Shown here piece by piece: positions 4,366 to 57,600 of a stretch of 57,861 bases of DNA; the first letter of the stretch is position 1, and each line of letters opens with the position of its first letter. The notes under the pieces are model-generated. The model worked only from the letters and a program-made list of their open reading frames with translations. It made no database searches and had not been told where the DNA came from. The translations under genes were made by a program, and so were the position numbers. Origin of the DNA: Candidatus Omnitrophota bacterium (lineage in GTDB: Bacteria; Omnitrophota; Gorgyraeia; Gygaellales; Profunditerraquicolaceae); NCBI GenBank assembly GCA_041650795.1, contig JBAZKK010000005.1, positions 1 to 57,861 of the forward strand. The letters run 5' to 3'.

Positions 4366-4520
4366 AGATTCAAACCTGGCCTAGGCGAACTGCCGGTAAA
4401 AATGATTCATAGACTGTATTTCCTCGCCGATAACATCCTCTATGAATCTCGTTATCCGAATTACAATTTTTTTTATAGCATTCCGTGCCCTGTTCAAACC
4501 TTTCTCCTTCTCTCACTTTT

Positions 4521-4574
4521 AGTTTATAAGATCGCTGTTACGAAATCCTTAAAGGACTGTGAACTTTCTGCAAA
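4521..4574 (-). promoter_or_regulatory. Putative Pho-box promoter P2 (upstream of receiver-smallORF-porin-pstSCA)
   Basis: Minus strand TTTGCA gaaag TTCACA gtcct TTAAGG atttc GTAACA gcgatctta TAAACT: four hexamers at 11-bp period, a 9-nt gap, then a -10 element. Confidence 0.75.
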
Positions 4575-4579
4575 CATTC

Positions 4580-32584: not shown

Positions 32585-32654
32585 TAACTACCCTCCTCTT
32601 TCCTTTTTAACTGAATTGGCGCTCCTGCCTGACGCAGGCAATTATGAGTGTTGC

Positions 32655-32683
32655 ATTATAACAAATATAACCGTTGCAAGCAA
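32655..32683 (-). promoter_or_regulatory. Sigma70-type promoter upstream of the MFS gene
   Basis: Minus strand TTGCTT-17 nt-TATAAT with TGn extended -10. The spacer contains TGCAACGGTTATA, loosely resembling a LacI-family operator. Confidence 0.6.
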
Positions 32684-32723
32684 TAATTATTATCCTCGTC
32701 GTAAGCATCCGGCCGCCCGGCAA

Positions 32724-33572: not shown

Positions 33573-33576
33573 GACA

Positions 33577-35750: not shown

Positions 35751-35864
35751 GCGAATTTGCTCATTATCTCACTTCAGGGGATAGAATATTTTGGAGGGAT
35801 ACTACCCCGCCATAAAAATCTTCCTTACCTTGCCATAAGTTGCCTGGGCGGTCAAGGCATTTGG

Positions 35865-36191
35865 CTATTGATGTTCCTCCAGCCACAAGACACGCGCCAA
35901 ACCCATAAGTTCTGCTCTATCCAGACGCACGCCGATACGCTTGTTACCGATGCCGGGATTGGCGCCTGCCCACATTACCCTACCGCGGGTATAAAGCGGC
36001 TCGTGCTTGTCAGGTATATTCAGCCACATCTCCAGAGGGGTCCTATTTGTCAATTCCTGGTTAGTTACAAAACCCACGCCGTTGGCGCTGATATCAGTCG
36101 TTTCTCCCACGCCTTCGCTGCCGTCAACCGGATTTAAAAAACGCACGGGCAGCCGGGTATTTATCCGGGCGAATACTCTATTGTCTTCCAT
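35865..36191 (-). CDS. Single-domain PilZ protein (putative c-di-GMP receptor)
   Basis: RxxxR (RVFAR) and DxSxxG (DISANG); strong RBS AGGAGG. Confidence 0.88.
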   Translation of the reverse strand: MEDNRVFARINTRLPVRFLNPVDGSEGVGETTDISANGVGFVTNQELTNRTPLEMWLNIPDKHEPLYTRGRVMWAGANPGIGNKRIGVRLDRAELMGLARVLWLEEHQ

Positions 36192-36251
36192 ATCTTCACC
36201 TCCTTCCTATGAGTATTTTTGCTCCGTGGCTGATTTTTATCTACGGTAGTT

Positions 36252-36270
36252 ATTATAGCACAATTTGCTA
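36252..36270 (-). promoter_or_regulatory. Extended -10 promoter overlapping a TAGCA-N5-TGCTA palindrome
   Basis: Minus strand TGCTATAAT, AT-rich upstream, no clear -35. Inverted repeat tagcacaatttgcta at 36256-36270. Confidence 0.5.
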
Positions 36271-36303
36271 TTTTGGCTACTATTTTATTTTATTAAAAAA
36301 TAC

Positions 36304-36642
36304 TTATGCAAAGGGTTGATTTAACCTTAAAACCCTCGAAAAACCCATTAGTTCCGGCCTCGCCAACTCTACTCCGATGCGGTATCTGCCGTCAAACAAG
36401 GGCCTGGACCACGCCACCGAACCTTGGGTGTAAAGGTCAGCAAAACCATCCGGAATATCCAGCCATATCCCCAAAGAAGTGCGGGGCTTCAAGGGTTCGC
36501 TGCTGATAAACCCCACCCCCTTGGCGCTGACATCGCAGGCCTGCCCATGCCCAACCTTGTTTGCATCCAGGTCCATGAAGCGCAGGGGCAAATCTGTAGC
36601 GATGCGCTCAAACAGCCTCTTATCCTTTACCAATATCCTCAT
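36304..36642 (-). CDS. Single-domain PilZ protein (paralog of 35865-36191)
   Basis: RLFER and DVSAKG motifs; shares ...ELMG[LF][AS]RVL C-terminus with its neighbour. Start set at ATG 36642, 8 nt after AGGAGG. Confidence 0.88.
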   Translation of the reverse strand: MRILVKDKRLFERIATDLPLRFMDLDANKVGHGQACDVSAKGVGFISSEPLKPRTSLGIWLDIPDGFADLYTQGSVAWSRPLFDGRYRIGVELARPELMGFSRVLRLNQPFA

Positions 36643-36679
36643 CCATGCCACCTCCTTTTTCCTTTCTCCGTGGCTGTTT

Positions 36680-39600
36680 TTAAGATACTGTCGCGTTACC
36701 TGCCATTCTATTCAGTAACTCGGACATTTTAATGCTGTCTCTCGCGCTATCCAGAACCGCGGCTGCATCAAAACTGGGATGATGCCACTCTGAACCGCTA
36801 TTAACCTTAAGCACCTCGGCTCCGGCTCCGTTCTCGTTAAGAATGCCCTGGATTTCTTCTCTGGTCAGGGAGCCAATCGGAGCTACCAACATTGCGTATT
36901 GGTGTTTGTTATTATATTTAAAAAATACGGAAAATGTGGGGTCAATATACATCCACGGGCGATTATCCTGATACATTACTATAGCGTGATGCGGCCAAGG
37001 CGCGGGAGTAAAGCTTTTCACTTCAATATTTATAAATTCGATGCGCCTCGGCCCCTGGGATGAAATAACAAAGTCGTAACCGAGCCCATGCAACTCCTGC
37101 TGCAGCAGAAGCGCAAAAACCGTTGCGCCGTCGCAACAATCAATATTATTCCAACCATAGATCTCTTCCATGGCCTGGAGAAAACCTTGGCGATGGTCAG
37201 TATCGTCCGGACTCTCCATCTGTTTTATAAACTGCACCGCTTCATCCTGAAGCCGTCTATTGGATTGCTGGAAATCGGCTGGCTGCACAGAGAATGATTC
37301 TTGTTTTGCCGTACCGGTCGTAGCGGGAATTATCTCTTCCGGATGCGAAGCTGAGGCAGAAGCGGAAGGTGCCTTAAATCTTAACCCGGCGTAGAATTCC
37401 TTATATAAATTATATAATTTCTCGGCTTCTTGCTCTCCCATAACACCTATTACCTCGCTCTTTATTTGAGAAATAATTTTTGATCCCTCCAAGCCGACTG
37501 CTTCAGCTAACAGCAGCTGTAAAATAAGCGCAGATAAAATGACCGGGTGCTTCTTGACCAAACCAACTAATTCATCGTTTTTGAAATTAAGCCAATTTTC
37601 AAGAGCTATTTTTGCCCGAGGCTCAAGCCCCTCACGTACCTTTTCTCTTCCAAGTATCTCTATAGCAACCCGGTCGGCGATTAATTCTAATAAGTTATTG
37701 GTAAATCTCCCCTGGTCCTGCTGGCAACCTCCGTGATTAACAAAATCAAACTTATTCCATTCCAAATAAGGGTGCCTTTGCATATCCTGCCCTAAAGCCT
37801 CACGTTTAGAAATGACATCTAACAATTTATACAAATCGTCTGCGGGATCAAAAACAATGTGCCCAAGTTCATGGGCAAGATATAGCCGTAATTCTTCATC
37901 TGATAAATTAAACTTTTTACCGTCAAAGGAAGGAAGAAAATTCATAGCCATAAAGATGCCGGGGTCGGACGGACTCCCCATCAATGTTACTGCCATGTCT
38001 ATCTCTGGTTCCGGCTCATAAGAAAACCTGTGTACCTTCTTCAAATTTATGCCGAATTTACGCATCCCAGCATAAATTTCATTCAGATACACTCCAATCA
38101 ATCTATCCCAGTACAAGGTTTGAGCAAGTAATGCGATTAATCTTTCTTCTTTGCCTCTTGTAAATTCGAAGAATCCAGAGATATCGCTAAATCTGGTGTT
38201 GGTTAAATAACATCCCCAGAGGGCCAGGGCTTCGTAAAAATTATCTGAAGAAACCAGGGGATCCTTCCTTAAACTGCTAACAAATTCCTCGGCAATTGAA
38301 GTAGCTAACACCAAATAACCATCACCCTGTTTTTCTAAGGCATAGAGCTCGCTTCTGATGGGGTTACGGATGCCTATCTGGGTTGCCTGGCGGTGTGCTT
38401 GTTCGTGGGTTCTGATTTCGCTAAGGAGCGTGTCGGATTCTTTTTCGGTGAGGACTTGGTTCTTGATTATTTCATGGAGCAGTGACTGAAGCTCTTCTTC
38501 GCTGGTGCGGTCATTGGCAAGGGGATGGAAAAAGGCGTTGCACCTCTGCCTTGGGCTTGGAGAGCCTCTTGTGCCGTTTATCCCGGCTGTCTTCCACAAG
38601 GCTACCTTATAGCCTAATTCATATATTTCCTCATAATGCGCTGCCTGGGGTTTTCCGGCCAGCCTAAGGAATTTAGCAAATAGCCACTGGAAGGCGGAGA
38701 CGAAGTTGTGGTTTTTCCTTTCCTGCGCAAAAAGAGAAAGCTGTTCTGCCTTTTCTGGTTGACTTTCTTGCGGCGGCATCTTAGGGTTGATAGCAGCGGA
38801 CTTGTGTAAAGTGACCTTCCAGTCCTGGGGTTCTTCCTCAAACAGAACGTATTCCATGTCGTTAAGAAAACTCAAGGCTTTATCCTGGAACTGCCTCGAG
38901 ACCAAAAGAACATCCAATTCCTGCCTTTTGAACTGGAAGAATATAGGCAGGCGCGCTTCGGGCCTTAGATTAAAAATATTACCTATTCTATAACCTGGCT
39001 GCAAATCCTCTTCTAAAATAGCGGCGGTATCTGATATGTCTGCTACGATGACAAACGGCCCCGGTTTATATTTTTCGATCAACTCTAAAAGCCGGCTGAT
39101 CTTGACTATCTTAACGTGTTTTATCCCGTGTTCGGTTAACCAGGATAATGCCCTTTCCCCTGTGCCTGCCATGGCATTAATCAGGGTCTGGCTGGATTTA
39201 TTGCTTCCCCGCCCTGCTTTATCCCTTTGATATTTAAGATACTCTTCCAGGGGCTGGGGGCCTTTGGTCTGGATGTAATTTAATGCCCTCATGGCCTTGC
39301 GTAACAATGCCAGGCAGTAAGAAAGCTCTCCGGCAGGAACAAGCAAGACATACGGGTTATTGAGTTCTTTAGCTATATCTTGTGTCTCATTGATTAAACT
39401 CTCAATCCTCTCCAACCTTTTCTGGCTTATAGGAGCCGAATTGACAAACATCAGATTAACATCGTCTAAATCCAGAGTCTCTTTCAATTTCAGGTATTCT
39501 TGACGGCAATAATAGCTAAGGTCGCTTAAAAGATTATCCATGGCGCCCCCCAACTCCTCGAGCGCCTCCGAAACCAACCTCTTTAAAATACCTTTTATCT

Positions 39601-42600
39601 TTTCAATATTCTCCTGGGCTAATAAATCTTCCTCGCTATGCAAGGGAGCCTGCTGCGAGTTGAATGCCAGACCGAAAACAAATGGCAAGGCAAAACCCAA
39701 ACCATAAGTTCCATTTTTTAATAACGCGTAGCCCGCCAAACCGGAAAGGATTAAAGTAAATAACGAGCCAATGGCAAGGCTGATACCGCTTCTTCTCTGA
39801 ATCAAGCGTTCCAGCCCTTCATCCTTAGTACCCCTGCCTTCGAGCACATACCATAAGCCGGGGTTACCAGCGCGCCCTAAGATATCGTTTTCATTAACCT
39901 CGGGCCGGTAAAAAATAATGATATCTGCCTGATAACCGGCCGGCAGATTTCCGATTTCGCCTTTCTTGGTTGTCTGGGCAATAATCACGTTTTTATCAAA
40001 TTCTTCCTGCATATTTTTTGTGGTTGCCCTACCTTTTAAAACTCCGATTCCGATGCCCAACGGCCTCAGGGATCCTGTCAGGGCCGAGAGAATCTTATCC
40101 GCGCTAACAGACTCATAAGCCACGATTAATATCTTTAAACCCGGCAGGCGGGCATTATTCTTCACTAACCCTGGCACATTTCTAACTATCCAATCCAGCT
40201 TGGGATGCTCCAGAAGGTAACGCCCATCCTCCGCTGCGGTGTCGATGTCTCTCAATAAAGAGGCAACATTCTCTTTTATGGAATTAATCTGAGCGGAGTA
40301 CTTGGTAAAAATACGCCAGGAGGCAAAGAATCTTCTTGTCGCCAGCATTATCTCATCGTGTTCTTCTTCGTCGCCGCCTTTAAATGGCGCGATGAGGTTA
40401 TATTCTCCCCTGCGGTGCCTGCACTGTGCCTCTTCGGTAAATATCTGCCTTACCTTCTTGGGGTTTATGGGTGAAGTTAAAAACTCAGCCTCCAGCCTTG
40501 CATCAATCTTATCATCATTAGACAGGTATCTTGACAACTCCTGCCAGGACAAGCCTAAATAAGCGCCAACTACCCTCCTTACCGCCTCTTCCTTTCTCTC
40601 CAGGTAGTCCTTTAACTCCGTCACCCCAGACTGCTCAAGGTGCTCCAGCGCCAGGTAAATTATCCACAGGAAGCTTACATCCGCTAAAGCATTCTGCCTG
40701 CGGCGATAATCCTGGGATATATTCTCTCTTATAAAACTCTTCATCTGTTGGTGGCGGCTAAAGCTCATCTTCTCGCGGTGCTCTTTAAGATAATCCAAGA
40801 CCTCGGGAGTCAGAGGATGCTGCATCCGGCCGGGGCGGTAATACGGGGCGTATCTCTTAAGAGCCTCCAGCCCATCACAATACATTTCCTCCAAAGCATC
40901 CAAAATATTCTGCCAACGTGAATCAGCAGGCAAAGAGAGGAGTTTTACTATCCTGCCTGTATCGGAGTCCTCCAAACCGCGGGTTTTTCTTTCCAGCCGA
41001 AGGCATTCCTTTTCTGCTGCCTTACGGAAAATATTACCCTGTCCTTCAACCTTGAAAAATCTTCTTGCGTCAACGTATTCGGATATGCCGTCGTTCCACT
41101 GCGCTTCATTACAAATACAAAGGCACCCGTCGGCATTCAGAAAGGGGTAGATTTTATCAATAAATTCCGGCAGGCGTCTCAGAGGAATCCACAGTTTTAT
41201 AACGTTGTTTAAGGCAATAAAATCCACCTTACCGTCAAAAGGCAGAGGTTCCCCGCTCATAAAATTGTAGCATTGGAATATTTTCTCCCTAAAACGGATA
41301 TCATCTTTATCTCCGAATATGACTTTAAAATTCTTAATCTCTTCATCCAGGCCGGGCTTCTCCCCGAAAAAATGCGCTATGGCCTTCTGGTAGGTTCGGG
41401 CTCTGGCAGCCTTGATATCCGTAGCGTCTAAATCCGTAGCAATAATTTCAAAATCATCCCCGCTTAACCCCTGCTTTATAGCTTCAGCCGCAAAATGATA
41501 GGCCTCTTCACCGCTGGCAGAGGCCGCGAACCAAATCCTGATTTTATCTTTGCGCCCTGCCTCTTTCATTCTGTAGATTTCCTGAACTATAAATCCTACC
41601 TGGCTTTTGACCTCTTCGCGCTCAAAAGAGGTATAGCTGACATCCACCACGTTATCCAGAAAATCCAGAAACCCTTTATCCTGGATAAGGAGTTTCTCAA
41701 GGACGCTGACAAAAGGCGCTCCCTCGTGGATAAACCACTCATCCGTATAGTTGTGGCGGATGGCCTCGACGTTTCTTAAATTACGGTCGCTTCTGCCGTA
41801 TATCAATATGCCGGTCTTGATATATACATACCTAAAGACCATCTTAAACATCAGGCGGTCAAACAGCTTGAACGCGATAGGGATTAACTTTTCTTTAATA
41901 TCGGCATATGTAGCTTCGCCGCCTAAGCCCTTTGCAACATTAATAATCGCTCTTTTCAAACGCAAGTTATTAAACACGGCCTCGGCAAGCTGTTCTGATA
42001 TCAAACCCAAAGGCCATAAAAGAAAATACGTCGCCGCAAAACGCAGGTTAAATATGGCACAAGAAGCAAAAGACGTTTTAGTGCCGATTCTACACGATAC
42101 CTGCTCTTCCAGCGCCGCGCACTTTTCATGCGGATAGCCTGATATAGCCGCAGTTTCATGAAGGATAGTCTTAGTTAATTCAGGGAGGTTATTCAGGAAG
42201 GCTGGATTGATGACAATGTAGCCGCGGTAGTTAAAGCCGTATAGCCGTATGCCGAAGAAAAACAAAAAGCTAAAGAGCCACTTTGGTCCAGCACGAATAA
42301 GTCCTTTTGCAGCTATTTCCTCTGATAATCTCTCAAGGCCATTTTCCCCTGCCTGTCTTAAGGCCTGGGCGGCTGCCTGGGTTGCCTTGTGGTTATCTGC
42401 CCCCCCAAAACCTCTGGAGAAATTATCGGATAACTTATATACTAGAGAGGTAACTGCATTCAATACCGACTTCTGCCAAGGAGGCAATTCTTTACCGTTC
42501 ATAGTGCGGGTGGAATCCGTAATCCCAGTTGCCGCAGCATTATTCAACGATTCGGAATACGGAACTGTCGTGCCTTCTTCTCCCTCTATACCGTCAAAAG

Positions 42601-45600
42601 AAGAATTAAGCATAAGGTCGCTCAACGCCTCTTCCTGCATCTTTAATAATTCATCATAGGTAACTACTGATATGCCTTTAGAATTGACATATTCTACTAT
42701 CTGCCTGAAAACATCTAAATCGAGCTCAGTGTAAACACTGGGCTGGCCTGGAGTAAATTTATGGAACAAGAGCCCTAAGGTGGCGTTGTTAGCAGCTGCT
42801 TTGTCTATCTGAGAGATTGTTTCAGCTAAGGTATCATTTGTTGCCGCATTACCATACGCATCTACTTGTTCAGGAACAAAAACATATAACTTATAAGGAT
42901 TAAAAGGAAACTGATAGCGTCTTATCTCATCGTTTGTTTCAATTTGATGAGAGGTAAAATGGTTATAAATCATCTCCAGGGTATCCTGGTCATATCTAAA
43001 ACGCGGGGAGGTATATGAATCAGCAACAAAACCCAGCATCCTTAATGTATTGGCGTTGCCAAAAGTCTCGTAGAATTTGACGTAATAGGGCTCATTTGGC
43101 ATATCGTCGACCCCGGAATGGGTCCCTATCTGGTTACCTTTAGCAGCCAGCTCCCGGATATCCTGCAGGCTCATATAACTGGCTGTCTGGTCATTGCCTT
43201 TGGCCATTTCATCCCAAATGGCAGATGGAATAATATTGTAAACCCCGCGATAACCGTATTGTTCCAATATATCGGTTGCCTCTAACGCCGATCTCCATCC
43301 GTCGTCAAAACGGAATACAATATGCGGCTTATTCAATAAGTCCGCGGCAACTGAATCAATCACTCTGGAAAAACGCACTCCATCAACGTACACATTCAAT
43401 GTTCCGTTATATCTTTGGGCCTTAATTGATATGCTTATAAACCCCACCTTCTGGCTGGAAGGAGAGTATTGCCGGGTAATATAATCTATGCCCTTAGAAG
43501 ATAATAACGCATAAGGCAATCTATTCAAATGACTCATGTTATTATCGTATTCATCTATAAACAAAATAATCCCTCCGTCATCAAGAGTCTCGGCGTTAAT
43601 CATAGCTTGCAATACATAAGTATTTCCGGAATCGACGTGGATTAAATCAGAATGCGCTTCTCCGGACGTTGTAATACGCAGGGAATTTTTCGCTGAAGGG
43701 GCTACCCCGTGATTATTATAATCTATACTCCAGCCTTCTAACGGTAATGTCCATCCCGCAGAGGCATTGCTTTTATTGTTAAGATAATCATTGATACTCT
43801 CAAATTTTCTTTCTCCTTTGGAATAAGCATAATATTCAATATTAGTTACAATATCTGCGGAGATTCGCTTGCTTGGCAAAAACAACATGAAAAACGAAGA
43901 TAAAAACAACGGCAATACAATCAAACCGGCATAAAAAACTCTACGTAAATAACCGATCTTATTATCTGCGGGAAAATGCTGCTTCTTGCTTTTAACGGGC
44001 TTGGCGGATGCTGAAGCCTTCGGCGAAACCGACCTGGTGGACCAGCCGTTATGCCCTAATGTCAAAAAAGCATAATAGTTGAGCGGGCCCAAGACCAGAA
44101 TATAGAGATACATATAAGCCACCCCGTAAATAAAATCTGATTTGCCTTTCTTAGCGAGATAATAAAGCGAACAAAGAAACGGCACAAAAGATACTCCCAG
44201 AATATACGACCAGGCCATCGCTCCATTGACCAGGGTATTCCAGATCAAAGCATAGAAAATAACTGCCGGTGAGAAAAGTGAAATAAATACCGATAAGTAA
44301 TAAGGAACAGATACGGCAGGATTTTTCTTCCACATAAAGCGACTGGCTACGGTCAGGGATTCTCTCCCCCAGGACCTCTTCCAACGCAACTGCTGCTTAA
44401 AATATTGCCTGAATGTCTCCGGAACGATAGTTGTCGCCTTGGCCTCGGAATGATAAATTACTTTCTTGCCTTCTCTCAATGTAAGATTGGTAAGGTTGCG
44501 GTCGTCGCCAAATGTGCATTTCTTACCGTGGAATTTCTGGTTTTCAAAATCAGGCAATATATCCAGGAGGTATTCGCGCCGATAAGCTGAGAAACACCCC
44601 GGGCAGCAGGATACCGCCCCAAAGACGCTCTCCGCCGCTTTAAATATTCTAAACATCACATAATACCAGACCTCCTGCATGCGGGTTAAACCATTCTTAT
44701 CCCAATTCACCACCTCGGTATGACCGGCAACCGCTCCTATCCTTTTATCTATCAAAGGTTGCACTATTTTATAAAGAGAGCCTTCTTCCAGGCGGCTATC
44801 CGAATCCACAAATACCATAATCTCACCCTTAGCCTGCCTAATCGCGGTCCCCATGGCTTGCCTCTTGCCGTGATTGATATGGAAGTTAATCACCCTGACA
44901 TTCCTATAAGGCCTGGCTGTTTCTTCAATAACTTTTAAGGTATTATCGCGAGAGCCGTCATTTACTACAATAACCTCAAGTTTATCCGCAGGATAACCGG
45001 TGTTAAGACAACTGGTGATGGTTTCCCTGACGCTTTCTCCTTCATTGTAAGCAGGGATAGCCACGGTTACGGAAGGATAATAATTTGCTGGCTTGGGAGC
45101 GCGATAGAAAAAAGATGTAATTATGCGGCTAAAAACATAGACTACCGTAATAATGCCGTAATTTTTAAATAACCAGGGGAGAGTGGAATGCTGGACAGAA
45201 GTATACTTAAGATAAACTATTGCTAAAAATACAGCCCCTGCTACAATTACACCGGCCAGGGTGGAAAATTTTAAAGGGCCTTTTTGGGAAACTTCATTTG
45301 TAGCTGAAGGGCTTGGTATATCAAGAGTATTTTTTTGTTGAATTCTAAGCCTTAATTTAAGGGATGGCTTTTTATTGGCAAATACCGCAGCTGCAATTTC
45401 ATAAGCCAAGGACCTGTTTTCTCCTTCGCTTGCCCCTTCTGGAATAATAATATAGGCGTCTCCATTTCGGCGGCAACGCACAATGCCTTTTGACCACGAC
45501 GGCGGAGCGCGCACAAAATTTATCTTACCTAACTTGACCGGCCTTACGGTAATCTTTAATTTTTCCAAATAAGCTACCGCCTGCTTGATTTCCGGAGACT

Positions 45601-48600
45601 CAACATTGATCTTTTCCCAATCCTTAAGCAGGCCGTGCCGCAGCTGAGCCAGGTTTACCGCTCTGTTTACCGCTTGCTTAGGCGATCTGTTGGCTTCGAC
45701 AAAATGATGCAGCGATAACCCGCGCACAAGCGAGGTCAACTCTTTATCCTGATTTTCAAATAGCTCCTCCTGCAATACCCTTAACAGATAATGCGGGCTG
45801 CTCTGCCAACCCGGTTTCCAATTCTCTGCGCGGATAAATCTGATGGTACGGCTGCTTAAATTAATACGGGCTTCTTCTCTTTGGATGCCCACTTTAAGAA
45901 CCCTGTTTTTCAGCTCCATTCTCAATGCGCCTGTCTGCGCCAGATGCTCGCCTATTTCATGGAAGATGGCAAGGGGGTTATTTAGGACGGCTTGTTGTAC
46001 CGCAATGAGTTGCGGCTCAGCCATGCTAAAACCGAAAAGGTCTCCTAAAATACCGGAGAAGGTGTAGAACCTAGGGGGGGATTTCTCTAAATTCTCCAGA
46101 AAAGCCTCAAGTATATAATTCCCCTCATTGTTTTCATCGTTGAACAAACCTTCCAATGACCACCGGAAGGCCTTATTGCTGCTTCTGACAAGTTTTAATT
46201 CTCCCAACTCGTTGCCGCTCTTTACGCTTATTACCTTCGCAATCCTCCTGCCTTCTTCCTCTTCGCTTACCGTATTTACCGCAGCTAACTTGCCTATCTG
46301 GCCAGTTGTCTTTTGCTTGTCAACAAAAAGCACCATGGCCTTGCCCCTTTTTACATTTAACCCCGCCTCCTCTAAGGCTGCCGGGGCTTTTACCCAAGAC
46401 ATTGAAACTGCCGGAAGAGATAACTCTTCGGTCAATAAGTCTTTTACTAAATCATACCCCACAGAAAACATCATTATGGTGTTTTCATCTGTCGCCACAG
46501 AGTAAAATTCTTCCCCGACATCAATAAGGTCTAATCCTGAAATAACCGAACCGTCGGAAATAACCTCTACCTTGTTTTCATCCAGGAATTTTCCTAAGAA
46601 TGACGGCTGCCTTACTTCGTATCTATCAAGTAATTTCTTTAAGTCCTCTAAATCATAGTTATCATCGATGGGCTTGGCATTTGCGGCAATCACCACTTTA
46701 TAGCCGAGCTTCAGAACCTCCCGTATTAAGACTAAACAATACAGCACCTCTCCGGAGTTATCAACGTTAAAGAGCACGGTTTTATTGATTCTTTCCTTTT
46801 TGGGCACTTTCAGGAGGCGTTCGGCAACTTCCTGGGCCTGGTCAAGCGCAAAGTATCCTTTATCATCGATCATATTCAAAACCCCGTTGACAGTCTCACC
46901 ATAATGAATATTCTGTAAAACAGTATTGAACTTCCTTGGCGCAAGGCTAAGTTCATCGTGAAATGATTCCGGACGCCGGCGGTCAAAGAAGTTGAGGTTG
47001 GCTAAAGCTACTGTTTTCATCGCCAGGCTTAGGCGCTGATAGGCGTTTGGCGAAGAATCCAAAAGCCTGATTAAGTCCAGGCTTAGGGGAAGGGCATCCT
47101 CATCTGATTCTCTCTTAACCAGCTCAAAAGGCGACTCGGCATAAACCCAAACAATCTGCCAGAGTAACGCCTGAACTTCATAAAAGGTGAGCCCGTCTAC
47201 CCAATGGCTTTCCATAAGGGTCTCCACGGCAGCCCAAACCTTAAACATAAATTCAGCGGTAAACCGCCTGTCATCGTGCAGTTCAATAAATAAATCCCTT
47301 GCCGCAGAAATACTCTCCATAATATGGTTACCCAAGACAGTTACCGCGTCCTCGTGCCTGGATTTGATCTCGCCGAACGTCAAGGGGAGCTGCTTTCTTT
47401 TTCCTCCGGCAATAAGGCTATAGCGGTTTATTGCCCTAAGTGGCTTAAATCTTAAAGCCAATATGCCGTTTGCACCTTTTTTCAATTCATGGTCGCTAAT
47501 AACGCCCGTTAATTTTATCTTCTGGTCTGAAGTAACTATGTTAGAATAAGGCCGGATTATCTCATCTTCTAAAAGCCCGGCGTCATCGATTTCGCTCCCC
47601 TCATAAAACAGGCAGTTTATGGCTCTAAGCCTGGAGAGCTTGGCATTAGTCCCTACATAGGTATTACGCAAGGAAACTACGGGGCCCAGCACCGCTTCTT
47701 TCCTGACCCTGCTCTTGCCTAATATATTCACATAGGAGTGCACCACCGCGCCCGGCTCTACCTTGGCCTCCTCAGAGACATAAATTGTTGACGGCTCGCC
47801 CCTGATTACAACCCCGCTTTTGATAAGCCTGGCGTATAGGGGTTTGTTTACCGATAATGACGAAACCCCGTCCTTGTTTAGTTCATTGGATGGTTCAATG
47901 CCTATCTCGCGGAGGCCAAAACGCATTTCTTCTCTCCCCATAGCAACGCTCTTCCTGCCCACTACCAACTGCCCGTCTTCTATTGCTGAACCGATAATGA
48001 TTGAATCGGCAATATAACAATCCTTACCGATTGCCGCTCCTCTTCTTATAATAGTTTGATCTTCTGCGCTAATCCTGGCGTTATCCCCTATTTTAACCTT
48101 GCCCAAATAAATCAACCCCTCTGAAGCATCCAGGATTACGTTTTTGCCGAAACACCGCGGGAATTCTTCGGTCAAATGCTTAAATTCTTCAGCATAAATA
48201 TAGATATTAGCCGCGTCGTTAATAATTATGTTTTTGCCGCTGGCGTATAAGCCGGACAAAAGAACCGCATGGTCCTTAAGACAGACTATTTCCCCTGACA
48301 TATCAACTTCTTTAGCCAGAATATTATCAATATCAAGCGGCGCGTTTACCAATAGCATCGCCGAATGCTTGGGTATCCCTTTAAATTCTTCAATCTTCTC
48401 CGGGTTTTTGGCCATTAAAATATGAATAAAAGGCTTGCGGCTCTGCATCTGCCATAGGCTTTCAGCATTGCCTTGGCCCATAGCAACAACGCAAAAAGTA
48501 CTCTTATCCTTAAATTCCCTAAGGAAGCTGCCGCTTAATTTGGCAGCCGGAGTTGCGAACATCCTTGAACCGGAAGAAATCACCTTGAGGCGCACCTCTG

Positions 48601-51600
48601 AATAATTCTTAAAATAACCCAGCCGTCTTAGCTCACCAAGTAGTGCAACGGCGTCCTGAGATGTTATATCATTGATTACGGGGACATCACGGCTGGCGAT
48701 AACTACGTTAAAACCGGATTCCAAAAGGAAACTCGCCAACAACATCACCAACACTGTCTCTCCGGCGTTATCGGTCAATATAATCACCTTGGGCCTGGCT
48801 TCATCAAATATAAACCTAAAAGCGCCCAAAGAAACCATGGCCTTCAGCTTAACCGAGGCAAGTATCTCAAAAAATTCATCAAGCTGCTTTTTATACAGCC
48901 CCCGGCTGGCAACTTCTTCTATTTTCTGGATAAGCCAGGATTCTTCGTTAAATCCTGCCTCGGAAGCCTCTTTCTGGAAACGGGGATCCCCGAAATCCAT
49001 GGCATTGGCTGCGGCGCAGATTACGCAAATCCTCTCCAGCGCCCTGTAAAAAGTGGTCAGTTCGAATAGATAATCCGGCGACACCCCATCCCCCATCTCT
49101 TGCTTATATTCACTCCAAGCCTTCTGCACTGCCAAAGGAACCTGCCTTAACCCCGGGTATTCTATCTTTAATACATCAGTGTAGGCTCTTGCCATCTTGA
49201 TAAACTTACCTATACGGCCGGAAAGCGTAGCCTTCATCTTATCCTCTTCGGGTATGGGCCAATCTAAAACTCCGGCAAAGGTATTATAAATACGGGGGAA
49301 TATCTTAAGCGCGGCGGAGTTAGCGCGCTCCTTCTCCTCGCGATAGAAATCTCCAACTCCAAAGATATCCTGCCTTTTTAATTCGGCATCATAATACAAA
49401 ACAAAGGTGGGCTTTGCCGCGTAAAGCGGCTCGTAAATCTTGGCAAAGATGTCGGCGTAAAAACTGACTAAACGCCTGTAGAAAACAACTTGCCTATCCG
49501 TCCAATGCGTATCCTTAAAGTCCTCATATTGAATCAATAAAAGCGCCCGCAGGGCTCTATGCATATCCCGTTCAAGATCCCTGACCAGATTATCGCGCTG
49601 CTGATAGGTTTTAATCCTAGGCATCTTTTGTCGTAAGGACTCAAACCCGGCATTCAGTCCATTAAGCACCGACTTAACAACATCCTTTTGGGCCGCCAGC
49701 TGCGCAAAACTATCCTTAAATTCCTTATCCATCTGGCGGTCATTGCTTAACCCCAGAAGATTAGCGCGCACCTTCCGTAATTCCTCCAGCCCCCCCTCGG
49801 AAAAGGCGCTATCAACAAAGGCATCTTTATACTCTATCCTTAGCTCTTCCGGCAATTGTTCCCTGAATTCCTCAGGGGCAGTCCGCGCCATCTCAATATA
49901 GGCCTCAATAAACAAATCAACCACTGCCTGTTCCTTTGGCTCGAAGGACAGGTATATTTCCTTAAGAAAATATTTACGCACATTGCGCGGCAGAAACGTC
50001 AGGTGGCCGCTTGTTAAAATGTCCGCAAACCCCTTTACGCCTCCTGTGATCAAAGGCGTCCCCCAGAGACCCTTGCCTACATAGTTCTCTTTGGGGAAAA
50101 TATTTAAATCCAGCAGGAGATATTTCCCTGCCTCTTCGTACTCTATGATATTCCCGCTGAGGCAGAGCTCTTTTAAAGCTCTTTGCAGCCCGGATTGGGA
50201 TACTCTCCTTTTAAGATTCCACGGCATCTGGGCCGCTATTTCTTCAAGCGTTACTGCAACATTTTCCTGAAAGGTCTGGGCTAAAAATTCCAAAACCCTT
50301 TTCTTTAATTCTGCGCCTGGCACATCCGACCTGAAATATGGCGCCTCGCTTGATAAAGCCCCCGCCTCATCTTCACCTTCACGATGGGCCTGCTCATGCA
50401 AATCTAAAGCCCCGCGCGTAAACAATGATAGTTTGGATGGCGGGATAAAATATTTTGTATCTTGCCCGGAGGTAGTAGCTGTGGGAAGGAATAAGCTTAC
50501 AATCAAAGTAACAGTGAGTATCAACGGCGATAAAGGCAGGCCTAAAATATACCCGATATAATACGGAGGGGCACGGATGGAGCGGGAAGTCAGATACAGC
50601 GCTCTTTTGAACCAGGTTTCAGCGCCTACGCGCAAAAATCCAAAAGCCACCTTTGGTTGCGAGCAATGCCGCCGCGCCTCCCAAAGTTGCCTGACAGGAC
50701 GCGAGTGGTTAATGGCTTCGCTGCGCGGCAAAAGCCCCTTGGCGTCAAAAATATCTTCCAAGACATTAATAAGATTATCCGTGGCTCGTGGTAGAGTTGG
50801 ATCATAGAATACCACCAAATGTTTTTTTACAAGCCGCGCCGAAGTACCGCGGTTGCAGCGGATAACGACATTAATTTTTTCTATTCCTTTGTTATCGAGG
50901 TGCCCTTTGGCAGCCAAGGTTTCTATACAAGCGGCGGCTTTAGCCCACTCGCTGCTCAATGTCTTCCCGTCGGTGATTCCCTTGACGCTATAGAGGAACT
51001 GCTTGGGGGGACGGTTAAACTCAAGTATAAAAGCATTAATCATACCGGCCCCCTTAAGATTGTTTGCCAAAACGCGGTAGTTACCGTCAAGGACATAGTA
51101 AATATTCTTTATAGAAGGGTGCTTCAAAAGAACTATCGGGGCTTCCTGGATTTCCGCATCATTATTAACTATCCTGACTTTATTAAATTCGAATGAATTC
51201 CTTGTAGGCACAACACGGCTAACCGGTATTACGGTCTCTGTGATTTCTAACGACGCGCCAAACTTTTTCTCAAGCCTTGCTTTTTCAGCAGAAGCCCGCT
51301 GAAGGGAAAAATTCCTCATCAGCCATCTCTTTATATTCCTGGATAGCTTGCCAGGATAAAGGCTATCTACCTCATGCACAAAAATCTGGATATTGTCTAT
51401 CATAGCCGTTCCTAAGAAGCTGCTAAGCAGGTTGCGCACGGAAGGAAAATAGGGCGTGGTAATTACCATGGTCTTCCTTTCTCCTTCCGCATCTTTCTCC
51501 GCTAAAAATTTAATGCCTGCTGTTGATTTCCCCGCAACAAAGTTAATCTTTACGCTACCGATATTTTGATAGTCAGCATATAAAAAGAATAAACCCAGAG

Positions 51601-54600
51601 TTTCCGCTAGCTCCGGAGATTTAAGCGATAGCTGTTTCCTAATCGAAGCTGCGTCAACAGCGGCAATATGTTCAAGATTAATCCTAATCTCCTGATTTCT
51701 TATCCCTAGCATTCTCAAAATAGAATCGGCATTCTCCAGTCCGTTTACCAAATAGTGCACTTCGGACTCTAATGTGGCATCAAGATTATCCATAGCCCCC
51801 AAGCTTACCGCCACCACGCAAATTCCGGCTATGCGCCCTGCTGTTTCAGCCGAATCTTCAAAATGGATTAGCTGTTCCGGTCTGGTATTTAATTCGCGCA
51901 TAATCTTGCGCATTGCCCCGGCCTTGCTTAAATACTCCTCCGGCACGCCGCTTCTTATTGCAAGGGACATTATCTCTTCTGGATAAATAGCGTAAATATG
52001 CCTCTCTCCTATAAACTCTAACAGTCCTCTTCTGCGCAATTCATCAATTAATAAATCCTTCTCGCCATCGCTTACCACAAAAATCTCCACTCCTGCGCTT
52101 CTTAATGACGAAAGGATAGCCTTAGTTTGCAACAGGTAGCTATCATTTAATATTATGCTCCCGTCAAAAGACGCTGCCTTTAAATCTCTCAACTGGGGAT
52201 TTAAGGATACTGCCCCTCTTAAACTCAATTCTCTTTTGACCCTAGAGGTCTCCGGTTTTATATCCGGCTCGCGCCCTATGATTTTCCTTACGGCGTAATT
52301 AACCAAAGGCCCCACGGATACCTGCTGCTGGGCAGGGAAACCGTCTGGCAACTCTACGGATTTTGTGGAAAGGAGGAGCCGGGGAGGCATCAGCTCGCGC
52401 TCCTTATCTATGTATTTCAGCGTTGGCTCTATCCTCTTCCTTTTTTCTATAGCCGCCAGTATTTCCTTTTCGCTGCGGCCGGTATTGAATACTTTTAGGC
52501 CGTGGGAGAACTTCCCGTGCACTACCCCGGTCAGGATCCTATGCCAGAAAACCCCTACTTTTCTTACCAAGGCATAGGTTGCAGCCATTATTGTCCCGCC
52601 GGAGGAGGTTTCATCGTCAATCACAAAAACCCAACAGTCTCTCACGGGCCTTCCTGCGACCAGTTTGATTTTACGGCCGTCTTTATCTAAGATAAAACCT
52701 GGTATCACGACAGTGGTAGAAGTGGTCCTTACCTTATCCATATAACCGCAATAAACCCTTAAACTGACGCCGTAATTATATTCTACGTACCCCTCCAGCA
52801 CAGCGGCTGCCTCGCATATATACTTGTAGGCCCCGTCATCGGGGGCAACCAATAACAGAGGGTGCTTCTTGAACTCTTCCTCCAGGCGCTCCGGCCTTAC
52901 CCATCTTATTAACTTCTCGAAAAGGCTTTCGGCAATCTGCACGAACGCATTGAGGTTATATATCTTATAAGGATATCCGTCTAGGCCGGTATAACCGCTT
53001 TCTTTCCCATAATGGATGTTTAAAACAAAATAATTATCCACCAGGTTGTCTATGCTTTTTAACATCACAGCAGCGCTTACGCCCTGCCCCGGCCGGAATA
53101 TTTTGTCCTGCCTGGAATAAGCCGCGTAGAGATTGATGAGCGATATGCTGCCCACCCCTGCCCGGCGAAGAGCAGAAAGCATGAGCCACAATTCCGCAAT
53201 ATCAACGCTATTTTCAGTGCTATGCAATAGAACTACATTCTTACCCTTTATGCCATCTGGCAAAGATATCTCCCAGTCCAAAGGGTTTGTTTTATTCTTT
53301 ATAATATTGGCCCTTTCAGCGCTTATATTGATTTCTCCTGCCGCTTCTTTAGCATCATCCTCTAGCCGTTCATGTTGATAAAGAACCTTATCTATCCATA
53401 TCGGGAACTCCTTCTTATCTAAAAGCGGCTGGGGACTGGCATCCCAATCTTTGAGTACGCCGTTTTTCTCGTAACCCACGCTATCGCTAAAACTACGCAA
53501 GAAATCCCCCAGGCCATTGCTAAAGGAACTGCCCGGCCTGTTCGTTATCAACCGGATAGTCTTGGCCTTGTAACTCCGCAAGAGCTCCAAAGTCAATATC
53601 ACCCTCACTAAATCATCCGGTGACCCGATATTATGCCTTAGGTTCACATTTGCCCGTTTTACAGTATAAGGATTTAAAATTACAGGGCCCCATTCTCCAT
53701 CCGGGAAACGAGTAAATTCTATGCCTATGGACGAACCCTCATCAGTTTGTGCTATGATTACCTCTGTCCCTATTGTTCTTTCTGAAGCCAGATAACCGAT
53801 AAATTCCTCCTCTACTTTAAGGTTCTCTTTATGGTTTAATCCCTGAACCGCTCCCAATTCATGCAATACGGTTAAACTTAACTGGGTAGGGTCTGTCAGG
53901 ATAGTGTTGTCAAGATATAAGGCGCCTTTATAAAAAGCCCCGTAAATTAACTTAAAGGGAGCGAAATGTATTTTATTGCGTTCTGACAAAATCCTGTCTA
54001 AATCCCTTACCCAGTCCTGGCGGCCGCTATCATTTAAGAAGTCGCGAGCCGGCTTGCAAAAATCCCTCAGTTTAAGATGCTGGGAATCGCTGCATACGCT
54101 GGAGTTGTCCTGGTTTTTCCTTAGCTCCTCTTCAATCTGTTCTTCGCTTAAAGATGCGCCGGATTTGGACCGCGCGAAATCATGCTTACCCAATGTTGCG
54201 ACTACCCATCCGACGCTCGCCCCCCAGGGGGATTGGAAAAATGTATCGCGAGGCAAGCCAAAGGGGTCAATTTTATTTTCCCAAGAGGTAAACAATTCCA
54301 CGTTCGCTTTCGGCAATGAATGCTTTAGGGCCTCCTTCATTACTACCAGGCGCGTGATAGCTTCATAGTCATCACCGTTATATATGGACGGCGCGAAATA
54401 AATCCTCCCATTGGGTTTTACCTGCTTCGCCAAAGAGGCAGCGTGGCTCCTCATTTCATTAGGATAGATTAAAAGATTCATTGAAATAACAACATCGGCA
54501 GGCCCTAATTCCTCTTTATTGGCGTCCGCAAATACAAAAACAAGATTGGAGAGCTTCCTTTTCCTCTCTGCCTCTATTATCGCGGCAACATCATAATCTA

Positions 54601-57600
54601 CACCGACCACAACTGCCGAGCTATCCTGCTTTTGATAGTATTTTGCCATATTGCCGGCAGCCTCTGCGAATTGGCAACCGACATCTAAAACGCGCAAACC
54701 TTTTCCTTTGGGCCAGGGGTTAAGCCTGGCTCTTTTGACTGCTATTTCAATCTCGCTCCTTGTTTCAGGATGCTGCTTGGCAATCTCAGCAAATACCATC
54801 CTTACAATAATGCTGCGCACTAATATTGAACTATCTCCTGAAAGAGACTTAATCAACGCCTGACGTATCTCTTGCTGCTTCAACTTGTAAACTTCCCCTA
54901 AAAGCAATGCTGCCTTGGCGCGCATCCAGGGCCTGTTATCTTTTTGCAATATCCTTATTAAAAACTGGATTCCTTCTATGCCGGCATCGCGGATCTCCTG
55001 GACTATCGCTTCATCTCTGGCATGATTAACAGTCCGGCTCGTACCTTCCCCTTCTATCTTAAGGTATTCTTCAACTGGAAAATCCCGGCGGTCAAGTCCG
55101 GACATTACAAATAGAGCGGCCCCGGCCACCCCTAACATTTGTTTCCCCACCAGCCACGGAGAGGTCAAAGCAAAGAGGGCGAGACCGAGGCCAAATCCAA
55201 TCATCACGGCGGTTTTAATCTCAGGGATACGAGGGGTCCTAGTGAGGTCTCCCGGGGAAGTCGTCCGGGCACCAGGACCCACATCGCATCCTGAGTTCGG
55301 TACTAAAGCGGCCTCGGCTAATCCTGTTTTTGCTTGACCCTCACCAGCCACGGAGAGTTGGGTAAGCCAGGTTAAACCGAGGCCAATTAAAGAAACCGCT
55401 TTCTCTTTGGCAAAATAAAAAATAGCTTTGATTTTGCAGTAACCTAAACCATTTAAATATTCCTCTTCTAATTTAATCTTAGAAAAAACAACTGCTTTTA
55501 ATAATTGACTCAACTCTTCCGGATGGTTCTTAAAATACTCATAGCTTTCCTGGCAGGCGAGTTGGTGGGAGTTGGTTTCTAATTCTTCGGTTTCGTGGCG
55601 GATGATGTCATTAATTAATGCCTGGAAGTCTTGGGAAAACGGCTCATTCAGGTTAAACGGCGGGGCGCGGGAAGCCAGTCCGCTTAGCACCGCTACCTTA
55701 CCAGAGATGGTCTTGACATCGGCGATCTTGCCGGTTAGGGTCTCATCTACGAATACTACTTCGTTGTTTCCAAAATACCGCTTGAGGTTCTCCAGTTGCT
55801 CTATGGTAGGTTTAATTAACTCCCCTGCGAGGCGAGCGGGGTAGGTTTGCCTTTCTAAATCCGAAGGTAAAATAGAGAAATCGGGACTAACTGACTCATC
55901 GACCTGGGCCATACTTTTCTCTGGTAATTGCGTTGCGGCTTTCTCCATTTTCTCATGGAGAACAGCAAGGCTGTGACTAGCTTTTTTATCGTTTGGCTTC
56001 ACTTCAAGCGCTTGTTGATAATAGGATTCTGCCTTACCATATTCACCTAATACCTCGCAGAGGAAACCAAGATTATAATATGCCCTCATATCTTTGGGAT
56101 CAGAGGCTAAGGCCTCCTCATATAGGGCTCTTGCTTCTTCGTATCTTTCTAATTTATAGCAAAGGACGCCGAGGTTATTAAGCGTCCTGGTATTTTTAGG
56201 CCCGGACTCAAGTGCCTTCCGATAATAATCCTCTGCCTCTGAGTATTTATCTGACTTCTCCCTGAAAACTCCTAAATTATTAAGTGTCACTGTGTCATCG
56301 GAGTTAACTTGCAGCGCTTTTAGGTAATAAGCTTCTGCCTCCTGGCAATTACCTAATTTTTCAGAAATGATACCGAGGTTATTCAGAGTTACAACATCAT
56401 CAGGAGCAAGCTCAAGGGCTTTTAGATATTGCTCTTTTGCCTGTGGGTAGTTGTGAATTTTTTCGTAAAGGCGGCCGAGATTATCGTAGACTTTAGGATC
56501 TCTGGAATTAGTCTCAACTGACTTTTTGTAACAATCTTCTGCTTCGTCATATTTGCCCAATTTCTCAGAGACAAAAGCGAGATTTCCGAAGATAATCGGG
56601 GTTAAGCCATAATCGCTAGTTATCTGTAACCGCTCATAAAGAAGCGCAAGGCATTCATCAGGTGCCACGGGATTCCCTTTATAAAGATTTTCTCTTGCCT
56701 TAGCTAATTTTTCGTCTGGGACCTGATGCAGCAGGCTTAAAACAAGATAAGCTCCCCGGCGCTGGTAACACTCTCTGACTCTTATTTTTTCAATTCTCCG
56801 TAAAGCGAAATCAATAAATATGGCCTCATCGTTGGAAATCCAAAGCTCTATAAGGGCGCGCCCGGATGCCGAAACGCCGTAAACACCGTAACCTAACAGG
56901 CTAAATAGGATATAAGTAAGCTGTGGGAGGGCGGCGTATGAAAAAATTCTTTTTTCAAATGACCTTCTTCTCCCAAAGCTGATTCTTGAATCTTCCAAAG
57001 CTGTAATTACATCCGCTGCGCTATCTCCAAGGCCGCTAACCAAAATTCTAAGAAGTGGATGGACGCGGGAATTGCTGTTTATCCCCTGCATTTCAAGGAA
57101 ATTCCTCATTTTTCTTATGAAGCTCATTAAACTATCGGCATCTTTCCTGGAAGGCGCCTCTTTCCGGAATTCATCGAAACTCCCGCTTTTGAATATACTC
57201 CAGAATTCCGCTGAAATCATTTCAATATTATTCAAAGGATAACCTAATTGCTCAAGTATCTCCTTTAGCCTATCATTAAGTTCAGGTGCTACAGGGACAC
57301 CGGTAGTCTGTCCGTAAGCAGAGGGTTGAATACTTATCCCTGCTTGAAACGCAAAGATCTCCCCTTCAGATAACTCAGGATTATCTTTATGGAAATTCTC
57401 GTGTCTGTAGATAAAATCTATGAAGCCCGATATTTCATTATTGCTAAAGCCGCGGCCTTTTAGCAATTTTCCTGTTTTACTCTCATTTAATCCACCGAAT
57501 ATATTACTTAAGGCAGACGCAAATTCTATCTTTTCTGTTGAAGGGTTGTAGTGGGCGACTTCAACAGGAGGACCTTTAATCTTCCCTGAAACACTAAGCC

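Follow-up and report, generated by a model that had tools for sequence, protein, structure and literature searches.

A predicted polysaccharide synthase cassette with outer carbohydrate-binding-like and CE4-like domains inside a giant Omnitrophota protein

A synthase cassette within a giant open frame

We analysed a 57,861 bp stretch of DNA from a Candidatus Omnitrophota bacterium (contig JBAZKK010000005.1, hereafter the window), which is one whole contig (C5) of a 1.19-Mb, 64-contig genome. A giant open frame runs along the minus strand of the window and is cut at its 5' end by the end of the contig (Table 1). Within this frame lies a complete processive glycosyltransferase of family 2 (GT2) with the transmembrane (TM) architecture of the hyaluronan synthases (HAS), which appears to be active. 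It is followed by one TM helix, by a β-sandwich that resembles carbohydrate-binding modules (CBMs) and finally by a domain with the fold of the family 4 carbohydrate esterases (CE4), whose metal site is altered. An initial annotation, made from the letters of the sequence, had described such an arrangement, and all nine of the motifs that it quoted are present in the giant frame. The cassette that it placed at 42650-45275 is real, although the homology-defined end reaches further, to about 42545. The window cassette is collinear with proteins P0002-P0004 and P0128 and with the cassettes of genomes G052, G288 and G405 (G, P and L numbers are our internal identifiers for the genomes, proteins and loci of sampled relatives).

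Table 1. Features of the giant open frame, its cassette and the adjoining genes; positions are those of the window and residues those of the giant frame.
Feature	Position	Strand	Remarks
Giant open frame	36680..57859	-	7,059 codons without a stop; 5' end cut by contig end; stop at 36680-36682
GT2 + CBM-like + CE4-like cassette	42545..45292	-	Residues about 4190-5105; homology-defined
N-terminal TM hairpin	45113..45274	-	TM1 4196-4224, TM2 4229-4249; AlphaFold helices, hydropathy
Cytoplasmic GT-A catalytic domain with interface helix IF2	44324..45076	-	Residues 4262-4512
IPAYNE	45041-45058	-
VVNDGS	44951-44968	-
FVDSDS	44795-44812	-	Residues 4350-4355; DxD
SCCPGCFSAYRR	44576-44611	-
GDDRNLTN	44486-44509	-	Residues 4451-4458; GDDR, catalytic base
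QQLRWKRSWGRE	44360-44395	-
TM3, TM4 and hydrophobic interface helix IF3	44063..44320	-	TM3 4514-4545, TM4 4550-4571, IF3 4574-4599; AlphaFold, superposition on Chlorella virus HAS and Xenopus HAS1
WSTR	44033..44044	-	Residues 4606-4609; counterpart of family consensus WGTR, Gly replaced by Ser
TM5	43886..43969	-	Residues 4631-4658; preceded by Lys/Arg-rich loop
CBM4/9/16/22-like β-sandwich	43352..43762	-	Residues about 4700-4836; AlphaFold strands 68-174, pLDDT above 90
CE4 (NodB-homology) fold domain	42617..43324	-	Residues about 4846-5081
RFDDG	43298-43312	-	Residues 4850-4854
HSGVD	43106-43120	-
LLFH	42761-42772	-	Residues 5030-5033
Conserved post-CE4 tail LSDLMLNSSFDGIEGEEGT	42560..42616	-	Common to Methanobacterium proteins
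Small PilZ-domain protein, 115 aa	36304..36651	-	Directly downstream of the giant gene
Second small PilZ-domain protein, 108 aa	35865..36191	-

The GT2 domain is intact and has a HAS-like membrane architecture

The GT2 domain matches Glycos_transf_2 (PF00535) in Pfam with E=1.6e-34 and Chitin_synth_2 with 1.4e-22. The best NCBIfam model is NodC (TIGR04242), which is matched over positions 17-394 of 395 at 1.5e-59; the score of 202 bits does not reach the equivalog cut-off of 550 bits, and neither does that of the second model, PgaC/IcaA (TIGR03937), with 133.7 bits against a cut-off of 422.3. In the PDB, Xenopus HAS1 (3.9e-37) and Chlorella virus HAS (CvHAS; 2e-31) match the sequence best, and these alignments extend through the membrane helices up to the WGTR motif. 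The GT-A domain carries IPAYNE, VVNDGS, FVDSDS, SCCPGCF at the position of the switch loop, GDDR and QQLRW, the last of which (residues 4489-4493) sits on an interface helix that spans residues 4483-4512 in the AlphaFold model. FVDSDS aligns with the DSD of NodC and HAS, and the GDDRNLTN and QQLRW columns are invariant across the 61-sequence family alignment. The window GT2 is an intact member of the superfamily that comprises HAS, NodC and the chitin and cellulose synthases.

An AlphaFold model of the GT2 domain was built with 60 homologues (pLDDT 85.8, pTM 0.82). Foldseek superposes it on CvHAS with a TM-score of 0.68 and a root-mean-square deviation of 2.8 Å over about 420 columns that include the TM region; the next matches are the cellulose synthase BcsA and the yeast chitin synthase Chs1 (ScChs1). 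The TM1-TM2 hairpin aligns with TM1-TM2 of Xenopus HAS1, and TM3, TM4 and IF3 together with this hairpin could form a putative translocation channel. A concern raised at the outset was that too few TM helices might be present to form a channel. The model has five, together with interface helices, and so displays the channel architecture of the processive GT2 enzymes.

The outer domains comprise a CBM-like sandwich and a CE4 fold with an altered metal site

Residues 4660-5105 gave no PDB sequence match at E up to 1, and on the CE4 domain direct Pfam matches remained below threshold (Polysacc_deac_1, 17.0 bits against 23.1; DUF2334, 24.5 against 26). An exhaustive HMMER search of 1.84 billion representatives recovered 378 homologues, which match these residues in two separate parts, query residues 38-175 and 183-435. 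Among 48 aligned homologues, 40 match Polysacc_deac_1 (PF01522) at E below 1e-3, seven match CBM_4_9 (PF02018) and seven match GT2; the window's own sandwich domain has no PF02018 match. The AlphaFold model of this region (window 42545-43882; pLDDT 83.6, pTM 0.82) consists of a β-sandwich followed by an α/β domain. With the latter, Foldseek recovered CE4 structures, including PdaC (6h8n, TMt 0.70), an acetylxylan esterase (7fbw, 0.75) and 7ax7 (0.66), and further SpPgdA (2c1g) and fungal chitin deacetylases such as ClCDA (2iw0, 0.59). The sandwich matches CBM16, CBM4, CBM22 and the hyaluronan-binding module CBM70 at TMt 0.5-0.6. Given the PF01522-matching homologues and a confident model that matches CE4 structures, the CE4 identity is established despite the sub-threshold Pfam scores. 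The tail beyond the CE4 domain follows a pattern shared with archaeal homologues, LSDL.LNS.FD.GIEGEEGT.

Among matches that span both outer domains, Foldseek ranked first a capsid protein, the 'turret' of Haloferax tailed virus 1 (8qpg_TA; E=3e-15, TMq 0.43, 413 aligned columns). From this structural comparison, the virus seems to display a similar pair of a jelly roll and a CE4-like domain.

Two of the CE4 motifs are kept. Motif 1, RFDDG, aligns with the FDDG of 40+ homologues and retains the catalytic-base Asp and the metal Asp, and motif 5, LLFH, aligns with the L.FH of homologues and retains the catalytic-acid His. Motif 2 usually supplies two metal-binding His residues. Here it reads HSGVD, in which the first His is kept and the second is replaced by Asp. 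The replacement had been noticed in the initial annotation and is real, since the alignment shows H-[ST]-x-x-H in relatives, while the nearest relatives have Tyr, Glu, Gln or a gap at the second position. P0002, P0126, P0128 and the proteins of Methanobacterium have lost the second His as well; G002, G052, P0129 and P0130 retain it.

An active synthase could be coupled to a CE4-like pseudo-enzyme, which together with the CBM would only bind, guide or anchor the chain. The loss of the second His from the window protein and its nearest relatives, where deeper branches keep H-x-x-x-H, and the direct Pfam score under threshold both speak for such a domain. However, the base Asp, the metal Asp, the first His and the acid His (LxFH) have stayed conserved in Omnitrophota and Methanobacterium after the loss, and the Asp at the lost-His position could still bind metal. 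We consider a pseudo-enzyme somewhat unlikely, though a serious contender.

The two halves of the cassette would lie on opposite sides of the membrane

In NodC, the catalytic core and the C-terminal region have been mapped to the cytoplasm (PMC4132801). By homology, both the WSTR loop and the stretch rich in Lys and Arg that precedes TM5 would be cytoplasmic, TM5 would bring the chain out, and the CBM and CE4 domains would stand at the outer face. The segments before TM1, after TM4 and before TM5 are rich in Lys and Arg, and that between TM3 and TM4 is uncharged. G002, a genome of the same genus, has CBM-CE4 ahead of the GT domain (an order also found in P0130), with a single hydrophobic segment in between, so that the two parts would again be placed on opposite sides of the membrane. 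The topology put forward initially, with the GT domain inside and the CBM and CE4 domains outside, agrees with the NodC mapping, with the positive-inside distribution of Lys and Arg and with the single-TM order of G002.

The gene context of free-standing relatives points to a chitin-like product

A search with the GT2 domain alone brought up over 3,800 free-standing proteins from prokaryotes, 430-570 aa in length and 41-49% identical. These share the signatures TCC[SP]GCFSAYRR, GDDRSLTN, QQLRWKRSW and WGTR with the window GT2, are automatically annotated as 'hyaluronan synthase' or 'N-acetylglucosaminyltransferase', and in some cases carry a C-terminal PilZ domain. The GT2 phylogeny that had been called for was run as a quick tree with NodC, PgaC and two HAS rows, of which the HAS rows are fragments; the placement of the long-branch rows L001, L008, L014 and L084 was disregarded. 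The sampled NodC and HAS sequences form one clade (SH-aLRT 95). The window GT2 falls outside it, in a separate clade (SH-aLRT 93) with free-standing proteins, a Paenibacillus enzyme and the fused versions. The earlier description of the domain as closely paralleling class I hyaluronan synthases thus holds for the fold but not for the family. By tblastn the window GT2 is 31-36% identical to NodC or HAS and 27-31% identical to PgaC; hasA of Bacillus anthracis pXO1 is among the matches, with 33.6% identity. The family signatures GDDRxLTN, QQxRWxxS and WGTR are absent from PgaC.

In each of the five free-standing GT2 loci that we examined, the operon includes a CE4 gene, and in four of the five also a GH18 gene. 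The gene order is CE4-GT2-CE4-GH18 in Paenibacillus, GH18-GT2-CE4 in a second locus and dehydrogenase-GT2-CE4-x-GH18 in a third, where the first gene encodes a UDP-sugar dehydrogenase; two further loci read GT2-x-(TPR+CE4), with or without GH18. Also encoded in the loci (L105-L109) are proteins without annotation, about 650-670 aa long, and, at two loci, TPR+CE4 proteins of about 1,300 aa. From their gene content, the GT2-CE4-GH18 operons look like an undescribed, bacterially widespread synthase-dependent system for a GlcNAc polymer. The coupling of a synthase to a CE4 enzyme is already known from NodC and PgaC, which pair with NodB and PgaB. This known logic and the CE4 operon partners favour a GlcNAc polymer as the product, and the GH18 partners favour a β-1,4, chitin-like linkage. 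The product reading that we favour is accordingly a chitin-like GlcNAc polymer that would be trimmed or bound outside the membrane.

Proposed mechanism and contrary evidence

We propose, with moderate confidence, that the cassette is a self-contained polysaccharide synthase-translocase embedded in a giant inner-membrane protein, making a chitin-like chain, with the CBM and CE4 domains outside. The GT domain would use cytoplasmic UDP-GlcNAc to build a β-linked, GlcNAc-rich chain, most likely chitin-like and β-1,4-linked, and the nascent chain would be pushed through the TM channel of the GT2 itself. The CBM and CE4 domains, tethered at the outer face beside the channel exit, would catch the chain, which the CE4 domain may partly de-N-acetylate, or merely hold if its altered metal site is inactive. 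The outcome would be a chitosan-like polymer at the surface or in the periplasm, and two PilZ proteins encoded downstream may place the synthase under the control of cyclic di-GMP (c-di-GMP).

Several points weigh against this proposal. The product of the window GT2 is a prediction from gene context. The CE4 domain and its whole nearest subclade lack the second metal His and the Pfam threshold was failed, so the CE4 domain may be non-catalytic. After the CE4 domain, no clear TM helix that would return the chain to the inside appears before two segments of weak hydrophobicity, at residues about 5186-5204 and 5263-5287, nor was any component for export across the outer membrane seen. Among solved structures, hyaluronan synthases come closest. 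A TuaD-like UDP-glucose 6-dehydrogenase is encoded in the genome and one free-standing relative adjoins the UDP-sugar dehydrogenase gene mentioned above, so that a polymer containing glucuronic acid (GlcA) is possible. Lys177 and Arg341, which recognise GlcA in CvHAS, are conserved in all compared QxxRW enzymes and are thus non-discriminating.

These last points raise the possibility that the GT2 is a true hyaluronan synthase, which would alternate UDP-GlcNAc and UDP-GlcA to produce a hyaluronan cell coat. The sequence and fold matches to Xenopus HAS1 and CvHAS, the two dehydrogenase genes and the label 'hyaluronan synthase' that JGI gives to free-standing relatives are all consistent with this. 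The label is automatic, however, and the PDB contains no closer bacterial relative, so that a HAS as best match reflects what has been solved. The sampled HAS sequences moreover group with NodC, apart from the window clade, and the conserved CE4 and GH18 partners act on GlcNAc polymers; processing of hyaluronan by them is not known. We therefore judge a hyaluronan product unlikely. Two further lines of argument were abandoned. Discrimination between hyaluronan and chitin at the level of residues was dropped because the GlcA ligands are conserved in every enzyme compared and the switch loop of the clade matches neither HAS nor NodC, and an argument against hyaluronan from missing precursors was rejected because of the TuaD-like enzyme. 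The gene for this enzyme lies at C11:13556-16149 with its neighbours (L097, L098), together with a TviC-like epimerase and a second NDP-sugar dehydrogenase that is closest to UDP-ManNAc and UDP-GlcNAc dehydrogenases. From these genes, the organism can probably make uronic-acid sugar nucleotides.

The cassette might instead make and partly deacetylate poly-β-1,6-GlcNAc (PNAG), in the manner of PgaC/PgaB, IcaA/IcaB and the fused MatB. The architecture of MatB, with GT2 inside, a TM helix and CE4 outside, is alike (PMC5972031), and PgaC/IcaA is the second-best NCBIfam model. Yet PgaC is more distant from the window GT2 than NodC or HAS both in identity (see above) and in model score (134 bits against 202 for NodC), lacks the three family signatures, and the relatives are accompanied by GH18 rather than by hydrolases of the GH153 or GH20 type. 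PNAG as the product is very unlikely on this evidence, and a chitin-like chain remains the preferred reading.

The cassette recurs in giant Omnitrophota frames

The fused cassette is rare. A six-frame search found it in four of 61 genomes (the window's own and 60 relatives) and in two of 400 other genomes sampled across the phylum, which with the window's own makes three of 401 in the phylum-wide sample. The bacterial cassettes lie in open frames that are very long or limited by their contigs. Besides the window frame, with 7,059+ aa cut by the contig end, they include frames of 4,315+ aa in G052 (a whole contig), 17,179+ aa in G002 (beginning at a contig end), 22,454 aa in G405 and 54,392 aa in G288; P0002 (from G011) and P0128, with 1,202 and 1,196 aa, come from short contigs that are open end to end. 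No cassette homologue of giant length (3,900-12,000 aa) was found in an index of 5.8 billion proteins. A scan of the genome collection with a single cassette protein returned nothing, and with an alignment it returned GT2-only relatives only.

The family-mate genome G011 encodes a homologue at 62% identity, and as a whole unit the cassette is conserved in Methanobacterium and in further giant proteins of Omnitrophota, with identities of 31-62%. The DxD, (G/E)DD-type and QxxRW motifs are retained in G002, P0128 and G288. In G052 and G405, QQLRW is kept alongside a GVDR variant, and the DxD of G052 is of the DSDT type. Between the GT2 and the CBM, most copies carry a multi-TM insert several hundred residues long, in place of which the window, G052 and P0128 have a short one-helix link. 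The insert, which spans about 470-870 in P0002 and about 470-900 in P0003 and P0004 and occurs also in L110 and L111, has no Pfam match, and in the CE4 tree the forms with the short link do not make up a single clade.

G002 holds the positional orthologue of the window gene. The C-termini of the two proteins are 72% identical, and the seven genes that follow, both PilZ genes among them, keep their order at 79-99% identity. This synteny (28755-36651 against G002:C4:51585-59521) takes in the PilZ pair, a sugar ABC binding protein, two permeases, an MFS_2 transporter and a GH2-like protein. The interior of the giant gene, by contrast, is shuffled between the two genomes and 31-77% identical, and the giant gene appears from this comparison to be a hypervariable locus within a conserved setting. 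The G002 cassette has the opposite domain order, is only 31-50% identical to that of the window and falls on another branch of the CE4 tree. A conserved setting that holds a non-orthologous cassette suggests that the function was retained while the module was replaced. The G052 and window proteins have only the cassette in common.

Given that the interior is so highly mosaic between same-genus genomes, the cassette could in principle be a decaying, functionless passenger of a fast-evolving giant gene. This is barely credible, since the open frame is uninterrupted, all GT2 catalytic motifs of the window copy are intact, and the motifs are present, some as variants, in the 31-62% identical homologues from at least six other genomes.

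Methanobacterium carries stand-alone copies

In the databases searched, the cassette is otherwise found only as a stand-alone protein in Methanobacterium, beside the giant Omnitrophota frames and short open contigs described above. These full-length archaeal cassettes are about 1,400 aa long and lie in the chromosomes among cell-surface glycan genes. In Methanobacterium sp. ACI-7 (L100; CP166866.1: 1725700-1745926), the cassette gene is found near GT2 and GT4 genes, a Polysacc_synt flippase and a UDP-galactopyranose mutase, and its product has an extra C-terminal hydrophobic anchor after the CE4 domain.

In a rooted tree of the CBM+CE4 region, the Methanobacterium copies are nested within those of Omnitrophota with supports of 99/97 and 95/96, and an approximately unbiased (AU) test rejects the monophyly of the Omnitrophota copies (p=0.0024). 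The grouping for this test was chosen with a first tree already in view, and which way the transfer went hinges on the root set by the outgroup. Free-standing cassettes had been suggested as possible donors of the module. They do exist, in Methanobacterium, but the tree suggests that they derive from the Omnitrophota module rather than having given rise to it.

A more speculative picture is that of a portable 'polymer spinneret', swapped among giant surface proteins and laying down a cationic chitosan-like polymer where the cell contacts its archaeal prey or host; the Methanobacterium genes would then be a capture from a bacterial predator or epibiont. The swapping is suggested by the fact that positional orthologues of the same genus carry non-orthologous versions in different domain orders. 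We hold this picture as a whole to be improbable.

The giant gene and its neighbours

The domains of the giant frame form a mosaic in which Pfam and hydropathy identify TPR, methyltransferase, PRPP-synthetase-like, ARMT1-like, GT2, CE4 and CheR-like domains and several TM segments. At least ten strongly hydrophobic segments occur in the 7,059+ aa, together with the GT2 and two methyltransferase-type domains. The frame thus resembles the Archaeovorin-type proteins of Omnitrophota (West-Roberts et al. 2023 preprint, in which Kizina et al. 2022 is cited for giant Omnitrophota proteins), which are likewise very long, with many TM helices and a mixture of glycosyltransferase and methyltransferase domains. 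A divergent SecA-like DEAD-helicase domain, typical of Archaeovorins, is absent from the Pfam matches listed for the available 7,059 residues, the N-terminal part of the gene lying beyond the contig end.

Stand-alone cassettes in Methanobacterium, and the cleavage of giant Omnitrophota proteins that has been raised as a possibility (preprint 10.1101/2023.11.21.568195), would fit a polyprotein from which the cassette is cut out as a protein of about 900 residues. Against this, Pfam finds no protease domain in the 7,059 residues, and BLASTP of the giant protein against itself finds no repeated spacer module at E below 1e-3. We regard a polyprotein as unlikely.

Base composition gives no clear signal of foreign origin: the GC content is 41-43% in the cassette, 45% in the giant gene and 50% in the rest of the window, and other parts of the giant gene are as low as the cassette. 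An open frame of 21 kb and the occurrence of related giant frames in other genomes both speak against an artefact of assembly. Elsewhere in the assembly, contigs C30 (13,544 bp) and C50 (4,965 bp) are each one end-to-end open frame, of 4,514 and 1,654 aa, and contig C38 begins within an open frame of 1,612 aa. These are further pieces of giant genes, one of which may be the missing 5' part of the window gene.

The 115 and 108 aa PilZ proteins encoded downstream are 91% and 99% identical to their counterparts in G002. The one directly downstream of the giant gene is a possible c-di-GMP receptor, and its link to the cassette is a conjecture. As free-standing GT2 homologues often carry a fused PilZ domain, control of the cassette by c-di-GMP in trans is conceivable.

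Comparison with known systems

The fusion of a GT2 to a CE4 domain is already known. Streptomyces MatB (SCO2962), a synthase-dependent GlcNAc-polymer system (PNAG synthase/deacetylase), likewise combines an intracellular GT2, a membrane link and an extracellular CE4 domain in one polypeptide (PMC5972031). In the window protein the GT2 and CE4 domains also share one polypeptide, and their opposite sidedness is predicted from the NodC and HAS topology, the charge distribution and the G002 arrangement. MatB is a protein of ordinary size without a CBM, and its PgaC-type GT2 is joined to the CE4 domain by one TM helix. The cassette, in contrast, has a NodC/HAS-type GT2, five TM helices, an interposed CBM-like domain, an altered CE4 metal triad and a host protein of more than 7,000 residues.

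NodC shares the DxD, (G/E)DD and QQLRW motifs with the cassette and has its CE4 partner NodB encoded next door. It differs in its 31-33% identity, its three TM helices and its short oligomeric products, and NodB is a separate cytoplasmic protein. The class I hyaluronan synthases CvHAS and Xenopus HAS1 have the same arrangement of TM and interface helices and share the GDDRxLTN, QQxRW and WGTR-type motifs. They are only 22-25% identical, have C[IV][SG]GPL in the switch loop where the window has CCPGCF, and lack both CBM and CE4. In the free-standing GT2 family, CE4 is a separate gene, whereas in the window it is fused through a TM helix and a CBM, inside a giant frame.

GT domains are likewise known in Omnitrophota Archaeovorins, where they are reported to be mainly GT5 and GT1 (preprint 10.1101/2023.11.21.568195). 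The preprints on giant Omnitrophota proteins that we consulted, this one included, stress attachment and degradative domains and make no mention of a deacetylase or of chitin. We found in them no description of a NodC/HAS-type synthase with an interposed CBM and an altered-metal-site CE4, of its incorporation into giant proteins as an exchangeable module, or of its sharing with Methanobacterium.

Discussion

The giant proteins of Omnitrophota, whose function is essentially unknown, rank with the largest proteins known. The presence in one of them of a complete processive synthase together with outer domains that would handle its product gives a concrete predicted biosynthetic activity to one part of such a protein, and the module, at about 900 aa, is small enough for separate expression. 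Adhesion to prey or host, or a surface coat, is our speculation as to its biological role, and the adhesion or camouflage put forward in the initial annotation is likewise conjectural. The statistically supported case of gene flow between giant Omnitrophota genes and Methanobacterium bears on the predatory or epibiotic lifestyle on methanogens that has been proposed for these bacteria. We found no characterised member of the free-standing GT2 family, which numbers over 3,800 hits and has its place in GT2-CE4-GH18 operons; it could be an unrecognised bacterial system for a chitin- or chitosan-like exopolysaccharide.

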